DNA of 28,107 nucleotides. It comes from Peptostreptococcales bacterium. GTDB taxonomy: Bacteria; Bacillota; Clostridia; Peptostreptococcales; Acidaminobacteraceae. The stretch is from assembly GCA_038240675.1 (NCBI GenBank), contig JBBRGL010000001.1:1-28107 (forward strand). The letters run 5' to 3'. This document shows positions 3,434-16,704 of the stretch, piece after piece; position 1 is the first letter of the stretch; each line of letters begins with the position of its first letter. The notes below the pieces were generated by a model. It had not been told where the DNA came from. It saw nothing but the letters and a program-made list of their open reading frames with translations, and ran no database searches. Both the position numbers and the translations under genes were made by a program.

Positions 3434-3481
3434 TCGCTGTGATGTGAAATGGAAAATTTCCTGAAACACTGCATCTTTAAA

Positions 3482-3778
3482 ATAGCAGAGTGAATCGAAA
3501 GGGTTGTTCGGCGCTTCGCGTGGGACAGTAGTGGGACGGTTGTATGGGAGTGATTGGTTTGGGGTCGAGACCAGTTTAGGTCACTTTATGCTCATGATTT
3601 GAGTGTCAAAAGTAAGTTTCTCGATTATTCAAACTGCATATAGTTCCAGTTGAACATTCCGGAACTATATGCAGTATGAACAAGATCAACTACGGACTTT
3701 TGACACCCTAATCAATCTTCTGTTCAGAAGACAGAATCCCTTGCGTTACAATAGAACATTATCGCTTATGGTTCAGAT
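3482..3778 (+). repeat. Modular dispersed repeat, copy 1 (module A, palindromic 122-bp module, module B)
   Basis: 3489-3601 aligns without gaps to 16472-16584 (90/113 identical, 46/47 in the first 47 nt). 3715-3778 matches 16641-16704 (59/64). Confidence 0.9.
3594..3715 (-). mobile_element. Solo copy of the ~121-bp palindromic MITE-like unit, inverted relative to the array
   Basis: About 88% identical to the array unit (14 differences counted). Terminal inverted repeats are present and the copy is flanked by TC on both sides. Confidence 0.8.
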
Positions 3779-3833
3779 ATAAAATAAGCATGTCAGATAA
3801 GTCTAGTCGAAATAACTATATTGGGATATAATG

Positions 3834-4299: not shown

Positions 4300-6261
4300 A
4301 TGCAATTCAGTTATGTAGTTTTAGCACCTATTATAGGTGTAATCGCACTTATTTTTGCGTTCTATTTAGCAGCAAAGATCAACAAGGTTGAAGAAGGCAC
4401 AGATAAAATGAAAGAAATTGCCGGGTACATCCGTGCAGGATCTATGGCGTTTTTAAAAAGGCAGTACAAAACAATGATGGTATTTGTCATCGTAATGGCA
4501 GCTATTCTGACAGTGGGCGTTGATTTACCGACTGCAGGAGCTTTCGTTTTCGGTGCTTTTTTGTCCGCACTTGCAGGTTTTTTCGGCATGAGCGTTGCGA
4601 CTAAAGCCAATGTTCGAACAGCCAATGCAGCGCGGACGAAAGGGATGAATCAAGCGCTTTCAGTGGCTTTTTCGGGCGGTGCTGTAATGGGAATGGCCGT
4701 TGTTGGCCTTGGAATTTTAGGCCTTGGTATTTGTTTTAACATTATGCCTGTCCAGTACATCACTGGTTTTGGACTTGGTGCGTCTTCAATAGCGCTTTTC
4801 GGTCGTGTGGGCGGCGGTATTTATACTAAAGCTGCCGACGTGGGTGCTGATTTAGTGGGTAAAATTGAAGCGGGTATACCGGAGGATGATCCACGAAATC
4901 CTGCAGTTATCGCGGATAATGTCGGCGACAATGTCGGTGACGTTGCAGGTATGGGTGCGGATTTATTTGAATCTTATGTAGGCTCACTTATCGCTGCCAT
5001 CACTTTAGGCTCCACGCTTTTTGCAGGACCTGGTGTTATATTTCCATTTGCACTTTCATCGCTTGGCATTATAGCTTCTATCATTGCGACGTTCTTTGTC
5101 AGAGGGGACGAAAAATCCGATCCGCACAAAGCATTAAAAATGAGCACATACGTCTCTAGCGCACTTGTGGCTATTGGTTCGTTCTTACTCAGCCAACAAC
5201 TGTTTGGGAATTTAAATGCAGCTTATGCGATTATTGCTGGCCTTGTGGCTGGAATTTCAATCGGCGCCATCACTGAAATCTATACTTCAAGCGATTTTAA
5301 ACACGTCAAGAAAATTGCGCAGCAGTCTGTTACTGGTCCTGCGACGACTATCATCAGTGGTTTAGCAGTTGGTATGATGTCCACAGCTTATCCTATACTC
5401 ATGATTTCTGCAGCGACTTTAGTGGCTTACCACTTTATGGGCATTTACGGTATTGCGCTTGCTGCAGTAGGTATGCTTTCTACAACAGGTATTACAGTTG
5501 CCGTTGATGCTTATGGTCCTATTGCAGATAATGCAGGTGGTATTGCTGAAATGAGCAAATTGCCTAAAGAAGTGAGAGCAATTACAGACAAGTTAGATTC
5601 TGTTGGAAATACAACTGCCGCCATTGGTAAAGGTTTTGCTATTGGATCTGCAGCGCTTACAGCACTTGCTCTTTTTGCAGCTTATGCGGAGAAAGTACAG
5701 CTCAAGCAAATTGATATTATGAACCCTATGGTTGTCGTAGGTCTCTTTATCGGAGGAATGCTCCCGTTTGTGTTCTCTGCAATGACCATGGAGTCTGTTG
5801 GCCGTGCAGCGTTCCAAATGATTGAAGAAGTGCGTAGACAGTTTAGAGAATTTCCAGGGATTATGGCAGGCACTCAAAAGCCTGACTATGAGCGTTGTGT
5901 CGATATCAGTACATCAGCAGCCCTTAAAGAAATGGTTCTTCCAGGCCTTTTGGCTGTCTCTTCGCCAATTGCTGTTGGCTACCTCCTCGGCACTGAAGCT
6001 CTTGGTGGAATGCTTGCAGGAGCTGTTGTTACGGGTGTTCTCTTGGCGATCTTTATGGCCAACGCTGGCGGCGCTTGGGACAATGCGAAGAAGTATATCG
6101 AAGAAGGTCACTATGATGGCAAAGGTTCAGAAGCGCATAAAGCGGCAGTGGTTGGCGATACAGTCGGCGATCCGTTCAAAGACACTTCTGGTCCGTCTAT
6201 CAACATTTTGATTAAGCTTATGACCATCGTCGCTGTCGTATTCGGAAATCTGTTTATCTAA
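4300..6261 (+). CDS. hppA: Membrane-bound K+-dependent, probably Na+-translocating pyrophosphatase
   Basis: Motifs [35 protein letters not shown] and [16 protein letters not shown] (Ala) indicates K+ dependence; DLFESY places the Glu as in Na+-PPases. Confidence 0.95.
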
Positions 6262-6264
6262 TAG

Positions 6265-6753
6265 ATGATTAGGTATCAAAAGTCCTTAGTTGATCATATT
6301 CATGCCGCATAGAGTTCCGGAATGTTCAACTGGCACTATATGCGGTATGAATATTTGAGAAACTTACTTTTGACACTCTAATCATAGATGATTAGGTGTC
6401 AAAAGTCCTTAGTTGATCATATTCATGCCGCATAGAGTTCCGGAATGTTCAACTGGCACTATATGCGGTATGAATATTTGAGAAACTTACTTTTGACACC
6501 TAATCATAGATGATTAGGTGTCAAAAGTCCTTAGTTGATCATATTCATGCCGCATAGAGTTCCGGAATGTTCAACTGGCACTATATGCGGTATGAATATT
6601 TGAGAAACTTACTTTTGACACCCTAATCATAGATGATTAGGTGTCAAAAGTCCTTAGTTGATCATATTCATGCCGCATAGAGTTCCAGAATGTTCAACTG
6701 GCACTATATGCGGTATGAATATTTGAGAAACTTACTTTTGACACTCTAATCAT
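6265..6753 (+). repeat. Head-to-tail array of four ~121-bp palindromic MITE-like units separated by AG
   Basis: Units at 6265-6385, 6388-6507, 6510-6630 and 6633-6753. Each has 19-20-bp TIRs (ATGATTAGGTGTCAAAAGT ... ACTTTTGACAC(T/C/-)CTAATCAT) and an inner 25-bp imperfect stem with a 9-nt loop. AG also flanks both ends of the array. Confidence 0.97.
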
Positions 6754-6795
6754 AGATTTGGGTGTGAAAGACAGTCAATAATTGAATTTCAAGTG

Positions 6796-6826
6796 GCCCT
6801 CGTCGATTTATCGACGAGGGCTTTTT
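6796..6826 (+). terminator. Intrinsic terminator of secG-hppA, downstream of the repeat array
   Basis: GCCCTCGTCGA-TTTA-TCGACGAGGGC followed by TTTTT. Confidence 0.9.
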
Positions 6827-6940
6827 AATGCACCGAAAGATGGTTTATTTTACATTGAAAGCTATACATTTTGAGTTCAAAAGGTTACGATAGAAGGGTA
6901 AACACTGTGAATCAACACGCGCGCATCATAAGGAGGATTT

Positions 6941-9070
6941 ATGGTTACAAAGGCAGATCTACTTAAATTTTTAAAAGAAGAAGCAGAACGACCTATGATG
7001 GATATGGATTTATTTCATTATTTTGAACTCGAACCTCATGAATCAGGCGAATTCTATAACATGCTCTCCGAACTTGAAGACAACGGCGATATTATTAAAA
7101 CCAAGAAAAACAAAGTAGCTGTCCCTCTTAAAATGGATATCTATGTGGGAAAAATCCAGACGACTCAAAAGGGCTTTGGATTTCTCATTGCGGAAAATAA
7201 CGTGATGGATGATGTTTTTATCCCTGCTGGTGCACTGGCAGGCGCTATGAACGGTGATCGCGTCTTCGTCAAAATCGTCAATCGCTCTGGGGCGGGTCGC
7301 AAAAATGAAGGGGAAGTTATTAAAATCATCAAAAGGGCTAACGAAAAAATCGTCGGGACTTTTGAAGCCAATGAATCTTTTGGTTTTGTCGTGCCAGATG
7401 ATAAACACATCAACAAAGACATTTATATCAAGCGTGAAGGCATTAACGGCGCCAAAACAGGTCAGAAGGTCGTTGTCACTTTGACGGAATGGCCTGAAGA
7501 AAGACGCAACCCTGTGGGATATATAAGTGAAGTTTTAGGCTTCCCTAATGAAAAGGGCGTTGATATTCTCAGTGTCATTCGTAAGTATCAGCTGCCGGAG
7601 ACTTTCCCTAAAAAAGTCCACCGCGAGGCTGAGGGTGTGGAGCAGTTTCCATCGCCTGAAGAGATAGGAGCGCGCCGTGATTTAAGAGCACAGCGGCTAT
7701 TCACCATCGACGGGGCCGATGCCAAGGATTTGGATGATGCGGTTTCCATTGAAGGGTTGCCAAATGGCAACTTTCAATTGGGCGTTCATATTGCCGATGT
7801 CTCCTATTATGTCAAAGAGCGGTCTGCACTGGACAAAGAAGCTTTTGACCGTGGAACCAGTGTCTATTTGATAGATAGGGTTATACCTATGCTTCCAAGA
7901 GAGCTTTCCAATGGCATTTGTTCTCTGAATCCTCATGTGGATAGACTGACTATGAGTTGCACCATGGAAATTGATCAGCAGGGGGCTGTCGTCTCACACG
8001 ATATTTTTGAATCTGTCATTCATTCCACTGAAAGGCTTATTTATGAGGATGTCTCAGATATGCTAGAGGCTATCGAAAGAACGGATTTGGAACATTTAGA
8101 GTATCTGCGTGAGGATTTTATGCAGATGGAAATCCTCTGTAAAATACTGCGCAATAAAAGAGAAAGGCGGGGTGCTATCGATTTTGATTTCCCTGAGCCT
8201 AAAATCATTCTTGATGAAACAGGCAAGCCTATTGAAATCGCCAAGCGTGAAAGACGTATCGCCAATCGCATCATTGAAGAATTTATGTTGGCAGCCAATG
8301 AGACGGTGGCGGAACATATGTTTTGGCTTGAAATCCCCTTTGTATACCGTGTGCATGAAGATCCCGATTTGGAAAAAATCGCAACTTTCAATAAGTTTTT
8401 AAATAATCTTGGCTATACGATCAAAGGTATTACGGAAGAAGTTCATCCTAAAGCGATACAGCAGTTACTGAGTGAGGTCAAAGGCAAAAAAGAAGAGGGC
8501 GTCGTCAATCGGTTGATGCTGAGATCCCTCAAACAAGCGCGCTATTCCTCTGTGAAAGATGGACATTTTGGTCTTGCTGCGGAATACTACAGTCATTTCA
8601 CTTCGCCGATAAGGCGGTATCCCGACCTTCAAATTCACCGGATTATTCGAGATTGCCTGCAGCACAAACTCACTGAATCGAGGCTCCAACAGCTCATTCC
8701 TATCGTTGAAGCGGCCGCAAAGCAGTCGTCAGAGAGAGAACGGGTTGCAGAACAAGCTGAGCGAGAAACTGATGACATGAAAAAAGCAGAGTATATGTCT
8801 GGATTCGTTGGAGATTCCTTCGAGGGCATTATTTCTTCCGTCACCTCTTTTGGACTTTTTGTGGAGCTTGAAAACACCTGTGAAGGGCTGACGCGTATCG
8901 GAGAGCTTGAAGATGATTATTATATTTATGATGAATTGTCCATGAGTTATGTGGGTCAACACACGCGCAAAACCTATAGTATTGGCGACAAAGTCGTGGT
9001 GCGGGTCGAGCGTGTTCATGTACTGAATAGAGAAGTTGATTTTAAAATATTGAATAAAATAGAGGACTAA
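6941..9070 (+). CDS. rnr: Ribonuclease R
   Basis: N-terminal HTH and cold-shock domains (KGFGFL), RNB catalytic TIDGADAKDLDDA and HFTSPIRRYPDL, C-terminal S1 domain; RBS AAGGAGG. Confidence 0.97.
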   Translation: MVTKADLLKFLKEEAERPMMDMDLFHYFELEPHESGEFYNMLSELEDNGDIIKTKKNKVAVPLKMDIYVGKIQTTQKGFGFLIAENNVMDDVFIPAGALAGAMNGDRVFVKIVNRSGAGRKNEGEVIKIIKRANEKIVGTFEANESFGFVVPDDKHINKDIYIKREGINGAKTGQKVVVTLTEWPEERRNPVGYISEVLGFPNEKGVDILSVIRKYQLPETFPKKVHREAEGVEQFPSPEEIGARRDLRAQRLFTIDGADAKDLDDAVSIEGLPNGNFQLGVHIADVSYYVKERSALDKEAFDRGTSVYLIDRVIPMLPRELSNGICSLNPHVDRLTMSCTMEIDQQGAVVSHDIFESVIHSTERLIYEDVSDMLEAIERTDLEHLEYLREDFMQMEILCKILRNKRERRGAIDFDFPEPKIILDETGKPIEIAKRERRIANRIIEEFMLAANETVAEHMFWLEIPFVYRVHEDPDLEKIATFNKFLNNLGYTIKGITEEVHPKAIQQLLSEVKGKKEEGVVNRLMLRSLKQARYSSVKDGHFGLAAEYYSHFTSPIRRYPDLQIHRIIRDCLQHKLTESRLQQLIPIVEAAAKQSSERERVAEQAERETDDMKKAEYMSGFVGDSFEGIISSVTSFGLFVELENTCEGLTRIGELEDDYYIYDELSMSYVGQHTRKTYSIGDKVVVRVERVHVLNREVDFKILNKIED

Positions 9071-11212: not shown

Positions 11213-13126
11213 TTACTTTATATCAAATAAATTTTGTTTATAATCGCAATATAGTTTCTTTAGTTCATCCATTGTGTCTCGCATTTCAACTTGAAGATTA
11301 CTTGCACGGTCATAGTGTTTGTACTCTATAGCTTCTCTCAAGTGCGTAAACAAGGATTTGTTCACCAAAGTGTCCTTCATGAGCTTCAGGCGAATGGTGT
11401 GAATACGTTCCCAATTGACCACGTCTAAATCCACAAATCCATCGCTTTCTGAACTGTGCAGGCGACTGAATGATCTGACAAGTTCCATGTTGTCGAGGAG
11501 GATGCGGTTTCTAAGCTCGGTGACCCAGTGTCCGGTCACCGTTTGATGGTAGGATGCTAAGATGGCCTCAGTAAAGACGCCGCCATCGAATAAGACGGAA
11601 CGCCTTAAGTTGTCCCCTTGTAGAGCTTGGACATTCTCCCACACGGTTTTTGGAGGTGCGCCAAAGAGGCGGTCTCTTACTTCTTCTGAGAAGTGTTCAA
11701 AGACGTCGTCTTCGGATCTGTAGCTACGATTCTGTTCAAGGTACTTTGCGGGTTGCCCATAGGGTTTAGAGAGCTCAGAAAGTGCTTCGTCAGCTGTGAA
11801 ATCATTGGCGAGTGCGGCTTTTATACCGTCGAGCATGGTTTGGTAGACGCCGGCTAGGACAAGGTAGGTATTTGAATGGGGATTTGGCGCACGTAGTTCA
11901 AAACGTGTAGACCGTGAATTGTTAATATCGCGCACGAGTCCCAGTAAAACAGTTCTATTACGCGTTGGAAGCGCATAGGTGTGACCCAGTGAGGAGACGA
12001 TGCAAACGGGCGCTTCAAATCCGGGTTTCAAACGATTGAAGGAGTCGTTTGAAGAAGTGATCAGAGGATTGAGAATTTCATAGTTTTTGAGTATGCCCAT
12101 AAGAGCCCCATAGCCAAAAGGGTTTAAGAAATGGCTGGCCATATCAAGGGGTGAAAAAAGGTTGATGGTCTTGCCGTTTTTAAGTTTGAGTGCCACACCA
12201 ACGTGGTGATGCTCTCCGCTTCCTGCGACGCCATCGATAGGCTTTGCTCTGAATGAGACCTCGAGGCCAAGTTTCACAAATGTATCACCGATAATATCCC
12301 GAGCAAAAAGCTCGTTGTCAGCAGTCTGCAGCGGGGCGTCATATTTCCAGTCGATTTCTAGTTGCTCCATAATGTGCGAAAAATCATTGGTGCCTTTGAG
12401 TTTAGAGGTGACACCACCAACTTCCTTGTGGCCCATTTCAGCTTCTAGGCCGTAGCGATTGAGCTGAAGGAGACTTTTTTCAAGGGCTGTTCGAACGGGG
12501 CCAACGGTTCTTTTCCAATATTGTTCTTTAAGAGTTTGAGAGGTTGAAAGCTTTTCGGTGTCGGTTTTGTAGTCCGGGGTTTTGACCCAGAACTCAAGCT
12601 CTGTTGCTGCGGTCATTTGCACGGATTCGATTTCACTTGCGCTGCTGAGGCCTATGTGGGCAAGTGCGCGGGGGTGTACCGCTAAAAGGTCTATAAGCGC
12701 ACTGGAAAAATGCGTGACAGCGCGTTTTAAAACACTTCTTGAGTCAACGGCCTGTCCTTGATGAATGAGTATGGCGGGTATGAGCAACGTGCCTACTGGA
12801 AGACCTGTAAGATGATCTCTGTTGTCGAGGTTATAATCCACAAGCCAGCGCACGGTTGAGTCTGGAATCAGGTCAACACGTGCATTGTTGATTTCTGCAA
12901 TAATCGGCAGGTTGACACTTGATCCATCGGTCTGGATGCCAAAAGAAATAAAATTATCATAGTCCTCTAACATCACTTCAATAGGGATACGTTCGTCTGT
13001 ATGGTTATTTCCAAGATCTACGGATACCAAGGAAACGTACTGGATTTCAGGACGACTTTTGATCGTTTTAAGGATTTCCTCCTTCGTTTGCTTTGAGGCT
13101 TCAATAGTATAAAGTAAGTTGCTCAT
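11213..13126 (-). CDS. glnA: Glutamine synthetase, long clostridial GSI-like form (637 aa)
   Basis: Motifs TDGSS, ELEFW, HKEVGG, EQLEI, KPIDGVAGSGEHHH, NRLKPGFEAP and RFELRAP; RBS AAGGAG. Confidence 0.9.
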   Translation of the reverse strand: MSNLLYTIEASKQTKEEILKTIKSRPEIQYVSLVSVDLGNNHTDERIPIEVMLEDYDNFISFGIQTDGSSVNLPIIAEINNARVDLIPDSTVRWLVDYNLDNRDHLTGLPVGTLLIPAILIHQGQAVDSRSVLKRAVTHFSSALIDLLAVHPRALAHIGLSSASEIESVQMTAATELEFWVKTPDYKTDTEKLSTSQTLKEQYWKRTVGPVRTALEKSLLQLNRYGLEAEMGHKEVGGVTSKLKGTNDFSHIMEQLEIDWKYDAPLQTADNELFARDIIGDTFVKLGLEVSFRAKPIDGVAGSGEHHHVGVALKLKNGKTINLFSPLDMASHFLNPFGYGALMGILKNYEILNPLITSSNDSFNRLKPGFEAPVCIVSSLGHTYALPTRNRTVLLGLVRDINNSRSTRFELRAPNPHSNTYLVLAGVYQTMLDGIKAALANDFTADEALSELSKPYGQPAKYLEQNRSYRSEDDVFEHFSEEVRDRLFGAPPKTVWENVQALQGDNLRRSVLFDGGVFTEAILASYHQTVTGHWVTELRNRILLDNMELVRSFSRLHSSESDGFVDLDVVNWERIHTIRLKLMKDTLVNKSLFTHLREAIEYKHYDRASNLQVEMRDTMDELKKLYCDYKQNLFDIK

Positions 13127-13183: not shown

Positions 13184-13214
13184 TTGAGAAACTTACTTTT
13201 GACACTCTAATCAT
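13184..13214 (+). repeat. 31-bp end fragment of the palindromic MITE-like unit in the glnA 5' region
   Basis: TTGAGAAACTTACTTTTGACACTCTAATCAT is identical to the right end of array units 1 and 4. Confidence 0.9.
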
Positions 13215-16464: not shown

Positions 16465-16704
16465 ATGGCATAGTGAATCGCAAGGGTTGTTCGGCGCTTC
16501 GCGTGGGACAGTAGTGGGGGGGAAGTATTCGGGTGATTGTTTTGGGGTCTCATTCAGTTCCAATCACATTACTTTAATGATTTGTTTAATCTCATAAAGT
16601 GTATAATGTTGATTGCTTTACACCGAAAGTCGACTCTAAAATCTTCTATTCAGAAGACATAATCCCTTGCGTTATAATAGGACATTATCGCTTATCGTTC
16701 AGAT
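16465..16704 (+). repeat. Modular dispersed repeat, copy 2 (module A, different ~64-bp central module, module B)
   Basis: Homologous to 3482-3778 in modules A and B. The centre (16577-16640) shares only its ends (ATGATTTG ... CTAA) with the palindromic unit of copy 1. Confidence 0.9.

Follow-up and report, generated by a model that had tools for sequence, protein, structure and literature searches.

MITEs derived from IS1182 transposons are already on record. Those related to ISMac2 in Methanosarcina acetivorans, 160-169 bp in length, are short, non-coding and multi-copy, carry the TIRs of an IS1182-type IS and are flanked by short direct duplications (PMC3852290). The IS1182 family is itself heterogeneous, and some of its members target palindromic sequences (PMC5678879). 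Its elements are about 1.9 kb long, possess TIRs, encode a transposase with DUF772 and DDE_Tnp_1_6 domains and prefer symmetric AT-rich or palindromic targets; the studied member, IS1272, replaces target hairpins without making a duplication (PMC5678879).

Tandem reiteration of dispersed repeats is also known. In the BOX elements of Streptococcus pneumoniae and the mycobacterial MIRU-VNTR loci (PMC3184786), which are scattered between genes, a single module is repeated in tandem a variable number of times, with slippage or unequal exchange as the probable cause; these repeats lack TIRs and target duplications and are not connected with a DDE transposase. Eukaryotic TE dimers and satellites (PMC5932611) consist of head-to-tail copies with one target duplication between them, followed by multi-copy expansion; the elements are long, and a founding double insertion is favoured. 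REP, BIME and REPIN sequences are abundant intergenic hairpins, often clustered and often in 3' UTRs, but REPs measure 20-40 bp, alternate in orientation, are moved by RAYT (HUH) proteins and make no target duplication.

Here we describe a tandem array of a MITE whose family was previously undescribed (a full-text literature search for the TIR string returned no relevant paper), although it is of a known kind: it has an IS1182-like partner, duplicates 6 bp of its target and has been amplified in tandem locally. Compared with the ISMac2-related MITEs, the TIR sequence and the host (a member of the Bacillota) differ, the whole element forms one long hairpin, the copy number is very high and tandem arrays occur; the duplication is 6 bp here and 7 bp for elements elsewhere with the same TIR, against the 4 or 0 bp listed for the ISMac2 MITEs. 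The partner is a distant relative of the IS1182 family, and its group makes clean 6- or 7-bp duplications where IS1272 makes none. In contrast to BOX and MIRU-VNTR modules, each unit is a complete MITE plus one target duplication; in contrast to the eukaryotic dimers, the units here have a single common origin and a TIR that is damaged. Identity with REPs or REPINs can be set aside, given a hairpin of 117 bp, a clear duplication and a partner that is a DDE IS.

The array between hppA and its terminator

The window, by which we mean the whole stretch of DNA analysed (28,107 nucleotides), is the entire contig C1 of a draft MAG (G000) of 2.57 Mb in 347 contigs, with an N50 of 8.8 kb, a GC-content of 42%, a completeness of 85% and a coverage of about 7x. 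The MAG is the sole member of its own genus among the genomes compared. The metagenome runs that contain it are from sediment and terrestrial material, and the host is an uncultured sediment bacterium.

Tandem Repeats Finder placed the array at window positions 6261-6757, with a period of 123, 4.0 copies and 98% matches, scored without indels. Four units follow one another head-to-tail at spacings of 123, 122 and 123, and ATAGAT stands on both flanks and at each junction (Table 1). The array sits within the predicted 3' UTR of hppA, between stop codon and terminator. The last base of the stop codon (TAA, 6259-6261) doubles as the first base of the left ATAGAT and of the array, while 38 nt separate the other end from the terminator at 6795-6822, which is strong; a gene for RNase R lies downstream.

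Table 1. Positions of the array, its units and related features in the window.
Feature	Position	Strand	Evidence
Solo MITE copy, nested in composite repeat (about 3445-3790)	3594..3716	-	
hppA, membrane H+/Na+-pyrophosphatase gene	4300..6261	+	Pfam H_PPase, E = 1e-284
Left copy of 6-bp target duplication, ATAGAT	6261..6266	+	sequence and genome-wide duplication test
MITE unit 1, 117 bp, private variant GGTATC in left TIR	6267..6383	+	
Junction 1/2, single ATAGAT	6384..6389	+	bridged exactly by contigs of runs X2 and X3
MITE unit 2, 116 bp, 1-nt deletion in right TIR	6390..6505	+	
Junction 2/3, ATAGAT	6506..6511	+	depth 5.8 in X1
MITE unit 3, 117 bp, right TIR ACCCT	6512..6628	+	
Junction 3/4, ATAGAT	6629..6634	+	sequence
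MITE unit 4, 117 bp, private variant CCAG beside loop	6635..6751	+	
Right copy of target duplication, ATAGAT	6752..6757	+	exact X1 contig 6743-7174
Intrinsic terminator of hppA (12-bp stem, loop of 4 nt, run of T)	6795..6827	+	
Orphan 31-nt MITE right end	13184..13214	+	
Second composite repeat, without MITE (paralogous empty site)	16465..16704	+	

An earlier note on this DNA had described four palindromic units, head-to-tail after hppA and ending before its terminator, and the repeat search, the predicted fold and a reading of the sequence bear this out. Each junction does read CTAATCAT-AG-ATGATTAG, AG recurs at both outer ends of the array, and the unit variants that it listed are all present: GGTATC, CCAG and, for units 1 to 4 respectively, right TIRs of ACTCT, AC-CT, ACCCT and ACTCT. 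Its view that this is not a CRISPR array also holds, as the units are parted by one identical 6-mer and there are no unique spacers.

No ORF of 80 or more amino acids overlaps the array, and an Rfam scan of the whole window gave zero matches at the gathering score. Promoters formed across the junctions, with a -35 in the right end of one unit and a -10 in the left end of the next, were represented by weak matches only, and shuffled sequences did equally well. The exact hppA protein, sought in other assemblies for a comparison of copy number, was not found.

The MITE family, its ends and a putative parent transposon

The unit of the array is a non-coding MITE of 116-117 bp: it is small, it has TIRs and a duplication of fixed length, it occurs in many dispersed copies and its TIR is common to an autonomous IS. 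BLASTN together with an nhmmer profile located about 283 non-overlapping loci in the MAG, on both strands, of which about 200 are full length; the median pairwise identity of copies is 86%. The TIR cores, GATTAGGGTGTCAAAAG and CTTTTGACACYCTAATC, extend over 17-19 nt and are more than 90% conserved per position. With up to one mismatch allowed, the TIR occurs 347 times in the MAG, whereas among 60 same-family genomes it was found in five, at most 15 times; a control with the reversed pattern gave 0, and the whole unit had no match in 40 relatives. Long ORFs hold just 8 of the 283 loci although they make up 82% of the genome; the family is spread over all types of intergenic region, in both orientations, and 85 of its loci adjoin contig ends. 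Here an intergenic repeat has undergone a lineage-specific burst, which did much to fragment the assembly.

Shorter relatives also occur. Mini-elements of about 49 bp, scarcely more than two TIRs, are found at C15:15303-15351, C50:2673-2727, C163:6127-6175 and C235:2113-2160, and are probably deletion derivatives. The orphan right end in the window lies upstream of a glutamine-synthetase-like gene (11213-13126, minus strand) and carries an outward-facing TTGACA.

A single unit folds into one long, near-perfect hairpin with a 9-nt loop, AAUGUUCAA; the predicted energy is -61.1 kcal/mol compared to -22.6 +/- 3.2 for shuffled sequences (z = -12). Across 218 distinct copies, 88% of hairpin cells hold Watson-Crick pairs, and two-sided changes that keep the pair occupy 257 cells, against 21-34 when the partner column is slid; these are cells rather than events, and they fit selection and hairpin-templated correction alike. 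Within the array, the 1-nt deletion in the right TIR of unit 2 offsets a deletion found in the left TIR of every unit, which gives perfect 17-nt inverted repeats. This compensating change resembles hairpin-templated (quasi-palindrome) correction.

The ends of the element are G...C (GATTAGGG...CCCTAATC). Flush with these, 60 of 140 non-nested copies have exact 6-bp direct repeats, where 2.9 are expected, and the duplication has an AT-rich consensus, A-WWWW-T. Position profiles for 141 non-nested copies show AT-rich flanks in which the sixth base outward is a conserved A on the left and a conserved T on the right. In nine copies the base before GATTAGGG is not T, and in eight of the nine the same non-T base recurs as the sixth base after ...TAATC; the T and the A are therefore bases of the target and not of the element. 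Paralogous sites agree, in that a composite repeat contains one AAGATT when empty and AAGATT-MITE-AAGATT when filled.

These flanks decide between the boundaries that the earlier note had left ambiguous. Of its three options, the 6-bp reading had the boundary right, although ATAGAT is a target-site duplication and not a recombinase-like overlap. AT ends with a 2-bp AG duplication give way to G...C with 6 bp. TG...CA ends with a 4-bp TAGA duplication are likewise replaced, on the strength of the non-T cases and of the 7-bp repeats of same-TIR elements described below; flanking 4-mers do match in 68 of 141 copies (5.2 expected from shuffled partners), but this signal, like the 2-bp one, comes from within the 6-mer match. 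An IS3 or IS21 derivative with TG...CA termini fails on the same ground, the T and A co-varying with the outer flank as target bases do. The solo copy in the window, whose TC/TC flanks had been thought to favour the 2-bp model, is uninformative because it is nested in a composite repeat of about 345 bp, with about 100 copies, and its flanks are common to many of them.

Composite repeats of this kind are about 220-345 bp long, number about 100 genome-wide, and have a variable centre between two conserved arms. That centre may be a core of about 68 nt alone, that core with an adjoining MITE (most copies), a MITE alone (window 3594-3716) or one of several shorter deletion forms. In copies with both MITE and core, the MITE has its own 6-bp AAGATT duplication.

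The same TIR leads to an autonomous transposon. The exact 18-mer TGATTAGGGTGTCAAAAG occurs at no fewer than 80 loci of other genomes; among the matches listed these are mostly Lachnospiraceae and other Clostridia, including isolates, and many are at contig ends. At 39 of the listed loci, TIR pairs stand 47-311 bp apart around interiors that are unrelated to the array unit, from which we conclude that one end sequence serves many unrelated MITE families. Direct repeats of 7 bp (A-N5-T), flush with G...C, flank 17 of the 39 against 0.6 expected. Isolates of Anaerocolumna, Anaeromicropila and Anaerosporobacter are among the listed same-TIR MITE loci (L012-L091).

At one locus (L045) a transposase ORF with DUF772 begins directly after the TIR. 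Its full-length homologues have 535 aa and are usually on contigs of about 1.9 kb; PF05598 and PF13751 (DUF772 and DDE_Tnp_1_6) are found on protein P0038 and more than 100 homologues. A complete IS of 1863 bp at another locus (L098) runs from GATTAGGG to CCCTAATC between two copies of CTATGAA, a 7-bp duplication, and a second genome shows ATTGAAT. The best NCBIfam match of the transposase is IS1182, over profile positions 18-486 of 488, at 122 bits and so below the cut-off of 270; for this reason we call the putative parent transposase IS1182-like. It is not an enzyme of the IS30, IS3 or IS21 type.

In its proposal that other genomic copies with consistent duplicated flanks be sought by BLASTN, and a full-length IS with the same TIR, the earlier note was well directed: the copies exist, and the IS is present in other Clostridia. 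In the MAG itself, such a gene is represented by a remnant of 72 aa where a contig stops (C34:4-219), 33-35% identical to reference proteins; searches of the MAG with DDE_Tnp_1_6 and P0038 found nothing beyond it, and there was no DDE_Tnp_1_6 match. Because the MAG's transposase was not assembled, it is from the MITEs alone that its cognate enzyme would appear to duplicate 6 rather than 7 bp.

Two other transposons of the MAG were rejected as parents. For the IS3-like orfA/orfB element on C185, which holds the only rve gene of the MAG, the one end that was assembled, upstream of orfA, bears no relation to the TIR and has no matching core, and the other runs off the contig. The ISEcp1-like IS1380 element on C10 has an inverted repeat, CCTAGATTCTACG..., that is unrelated as well. 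Each has features of its own. Beside the IS3-like element (C185:1650-2300, L009) a structured repeat with the motifs CCGCCCAGAAGTT..., ...TTGCATCGTGCAA... and GGTTCCTTNTGAGGATTGAAATC occurs twice, about 450 nt apart. The IS1380-family element (C10:1-790, L010) is truncated where its contig stops. Its DNA matches that of ISEcp1 at 87% identity across 99% of 800 bp, CCTAGATTCTACG included, and it is an environmental relative of that IS, which is clinically important on resistance plasmids of Enterobacterales.

Flanks of the 1863-bp IS on two further contigs (L097, L100) resembled inverted repeats and had raised the possibility of a palindromic target without duplication. This was rejected, as there are two IS copies (CTATGAA and ATCATAG) with exchanged flanks, and L098 has the direct 7-bp repeat. 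The exchange of flanks between the two copies across L097, L098 and L100, which are contigs of gut or other metagenomes, points either to recombination between the IS copies, with inversion, or to chimeras made in assembly.

Origin of the array

Identity among the four units is 98.4-99.2%, compared with 92.7% to the nearest copy elsewhere in the genome. A 1-nt deletion private to the array gives all four a left TIR of GATTAGGTG in place of GATTAGGGTG, and the subtype was absent from dispersed copies in the assembled 85% of the genome. Given this identity, the private deletion and junctions with the same 6-mer as the flanks, the array is the descendant of one old insertion, amplified in place much later; the earlier note's idea of a non-autonomous, MITE-like element amplified locally was correct to that extent. 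Differences between units amount to four private singletons in a star-like pattern, from which the order of duplication cannot be read.

What drove the growth is less direct. We think it probable that a MITE mobilised by an IS1182-like transposase inserted at the end of hppA and was then amplified by slippage or unequal exchange. A DDE transposase of this type (DUF772 and DDE_Tnp_1_6) would recognise the 17-nt TIRs, that is GATTAGGGTGTCAAAAG and its complement, and insertion would duplicate a 6-bp AT-rich target, A-WWWW-T. Long ago, one copy would have entered ATAGAT at the extreme end of hppA, in the 3' UTR. The identical 6-mers on either side of the element, helped by its tendency to fold back, could then let a nascent strand or sister chromatid mis-pair between the two copies of ATAGAT, to give ATAGAT-unit-ATAGAT-unit-ATAGAT. 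Once present, the 123-bp direct repeats could expand to four or more by unequal exchange or slippage. Amplification would on this account be the work of host replication or recombination and not of the transposase; the route is favoured because the TIR is damaged, there are no dispersed progeny and there are no inverted neighbours.

The main rival holds that the transposase stacked the units itself, a sister copy from the same locus re-inserting repeatedly into the regenerated A-WWWW-T. This is a lesser possibility that we nonetheless take seriously. It predicts the observed pattern of junctions and flanks equally well, since each insertion regenerates the target consensus A-NNNN-T on both sides, and ATAGAT is a recurrent target, used at three other loci. 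A modest bias in target orientation (ATAAAT 12 times against ATTTAT 3 times) could co-orient stacked copies, and double insertion is favoured for the TE dimers of Drosophila (McGurk and Barbash 2018, PMC5932611).

Other clusters in the genome bear on both accounts. All 16 adjacent clusters are head-to-tail, with no inverted neighbours. Junctions on C3, C27, C39 and the partial C16 are 6 nt long and identical or nearly identical to the flanks, and the junction on C105 is 5 nt. Two arrays are heterogeneous: C39 includes a unit that resembles a copy from elsewhere more closely, and the third unit on C105 belongs to a different subtype. This heterogeneity fits re-insertion beside a resident copy, so stacking by transposase happens, or has happened, in this genome.

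A further subtype is a dimer with its inner ends 2 bp apart (CTAATC-AA-GATTAG), found at C261:1098-1338, C20:11174-11413, C244:1178-1417, C206:1548-1787 and C94:5019-5255. The first units of these dimers cluster together and the dimers have their own outer 6-bp duplication (an exact ATAAAT on C261); the subtype therefore seems to move as one 238-bp element. Together with the heterogeneous arrays, such dimers (type II) show that adjacent or composite insertions happen. Abutted-end tandem junctions were absent from five better-assembled genomes that carry the TIR.

At hppA, however, the evidence argues against stacking. The units share a damaged left TIR, differ by 7% from other copies and belong to a subtype absent from the rest of the assembled genome; that a single 6-mer should have received three hops in a row, with none landing at another site, is unlikely. 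An intact transposase was not found in the assembly, and inverted neighbours occur nowhere. We accordingly prefer slippage or unequal exchange for this array.

Other readings of the array

As to function, the array would now only add four strong predicted hairpins to the 3' UTR of hppA. Co-option is compatible with either origin: in the manner of REPs, the hairpins might stabilise the 3' end of the hppA mRNA, serve as a target for RNase III or act as a pause site. The place of the array between stop codon and terminator, the stability of each unit as RNA (-61 kcal/mol) and the family-wide upkeep of the hairpin by two-sided changes could be taken in its favour. Hairpin-templated correction accounts for that upkeep equally well, however, and the dispersal of the family through every kind of intergenic space in both orientations speaks against it. 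We regard co-option as quite unlikely; the array looks like selfish DNA, and nothing suggests more.

It could also be asked whether the array is a product of assembly, the true locus having fewer (or more) units, with strain variants of a shorter array unrolled into one. The fragmentation and low coverage of the MAG, the frequency with which family loci fall near contig ends and the internal identity of units 1-3 across about 95 bp make the question a fair one. To address it, Logan contigs from three runs (X1, X2 and X3, the last from a different study) were compared with window positions 5600-7400. An exact X1 contig (6159-6301) joins hppA to unit 1, and the exact X1 contig at the right edge (Table 1) joins unit 4 to the flank beyond. 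The unit 1/2 junction is bridged by exact contigs from X2 (6357-6428) and X3 (6357-6426). In X1, the depth at the unique unit 2/3 junction is close to that of the single-copy flanks (7-9); within the repeat itself, copies from the rest of the genome raise the depth to hundreds to thousands.

The exact bridging contigs and the junction depth lead us to conclude that the tandem arrangement is real. Three runs and two studies support the two outer flanks and the first junction, every unit has a marker of its own, so that at least the junctions named exist on real molecules, and tandem arrays of the family occur on other contigs also. An artefact is thus very unlikely. The count of four is based on the four unit-specific variants in a 7x short-read assembly and is more than k=31 contigs can confirm; it is best taken as a minimum.

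Barely tenable is the derivation from the IS30 family that the earlier note had put forward, with AT ends, a 2-bp duplication and targeting of its own IRs or multimer integration: AG does flank ATGATTAG...CTAATCAT at either end within the array, and in 79-80 of about 140 copies the 2-mers next to the ends match, but that match is the core of the 6-mer match, the supposed terminal A and T vary with the outer flank in eight of nine informative cases, the IS bounded by the TIR encodes DUF772 and DDE_Tnp_1_6 and not an rve-type transposase, and the one rve gene of the MAG belongs to the IS3-like element with its unrelated assembled end.

Transposons as a source of tandem repeats

The array at hppA is one more case of a bacterial transposon turned into a short tandem array, which is not surprising in itself. 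Its family has wider significance on three counts. One 17-nt end is common to an IS1182-like IS and to many unrelated MITEs across the Clostridia, which constitutes a TIR superfamily. The burst of about 350 ends in about 2.6 Mb explains the fragmentation of the MAG. For annotation, flanks gathered genome-wide can separate the 2-, 4- and 6-bp readings of the boundaries of such arrays.

A bolder interpretation, which we consider unlikely, is that a hairpin MITE with its 6-bp duplication is intrinsically prone to tandem amplification in this lineage, independently of transposase. Fold-back would join the duplicated 6-mers, as in precise excision reversed, and correction templated by the hairpin, of which the compensating deletion in unit 2 would be an instance, would keep the palindrome perfect. 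If this were true, then MITE insertions would be the seeds of bacterial minisatellites, and the RNA hairpins that such arrays place in 3' UTRs could tune mRNA decay.
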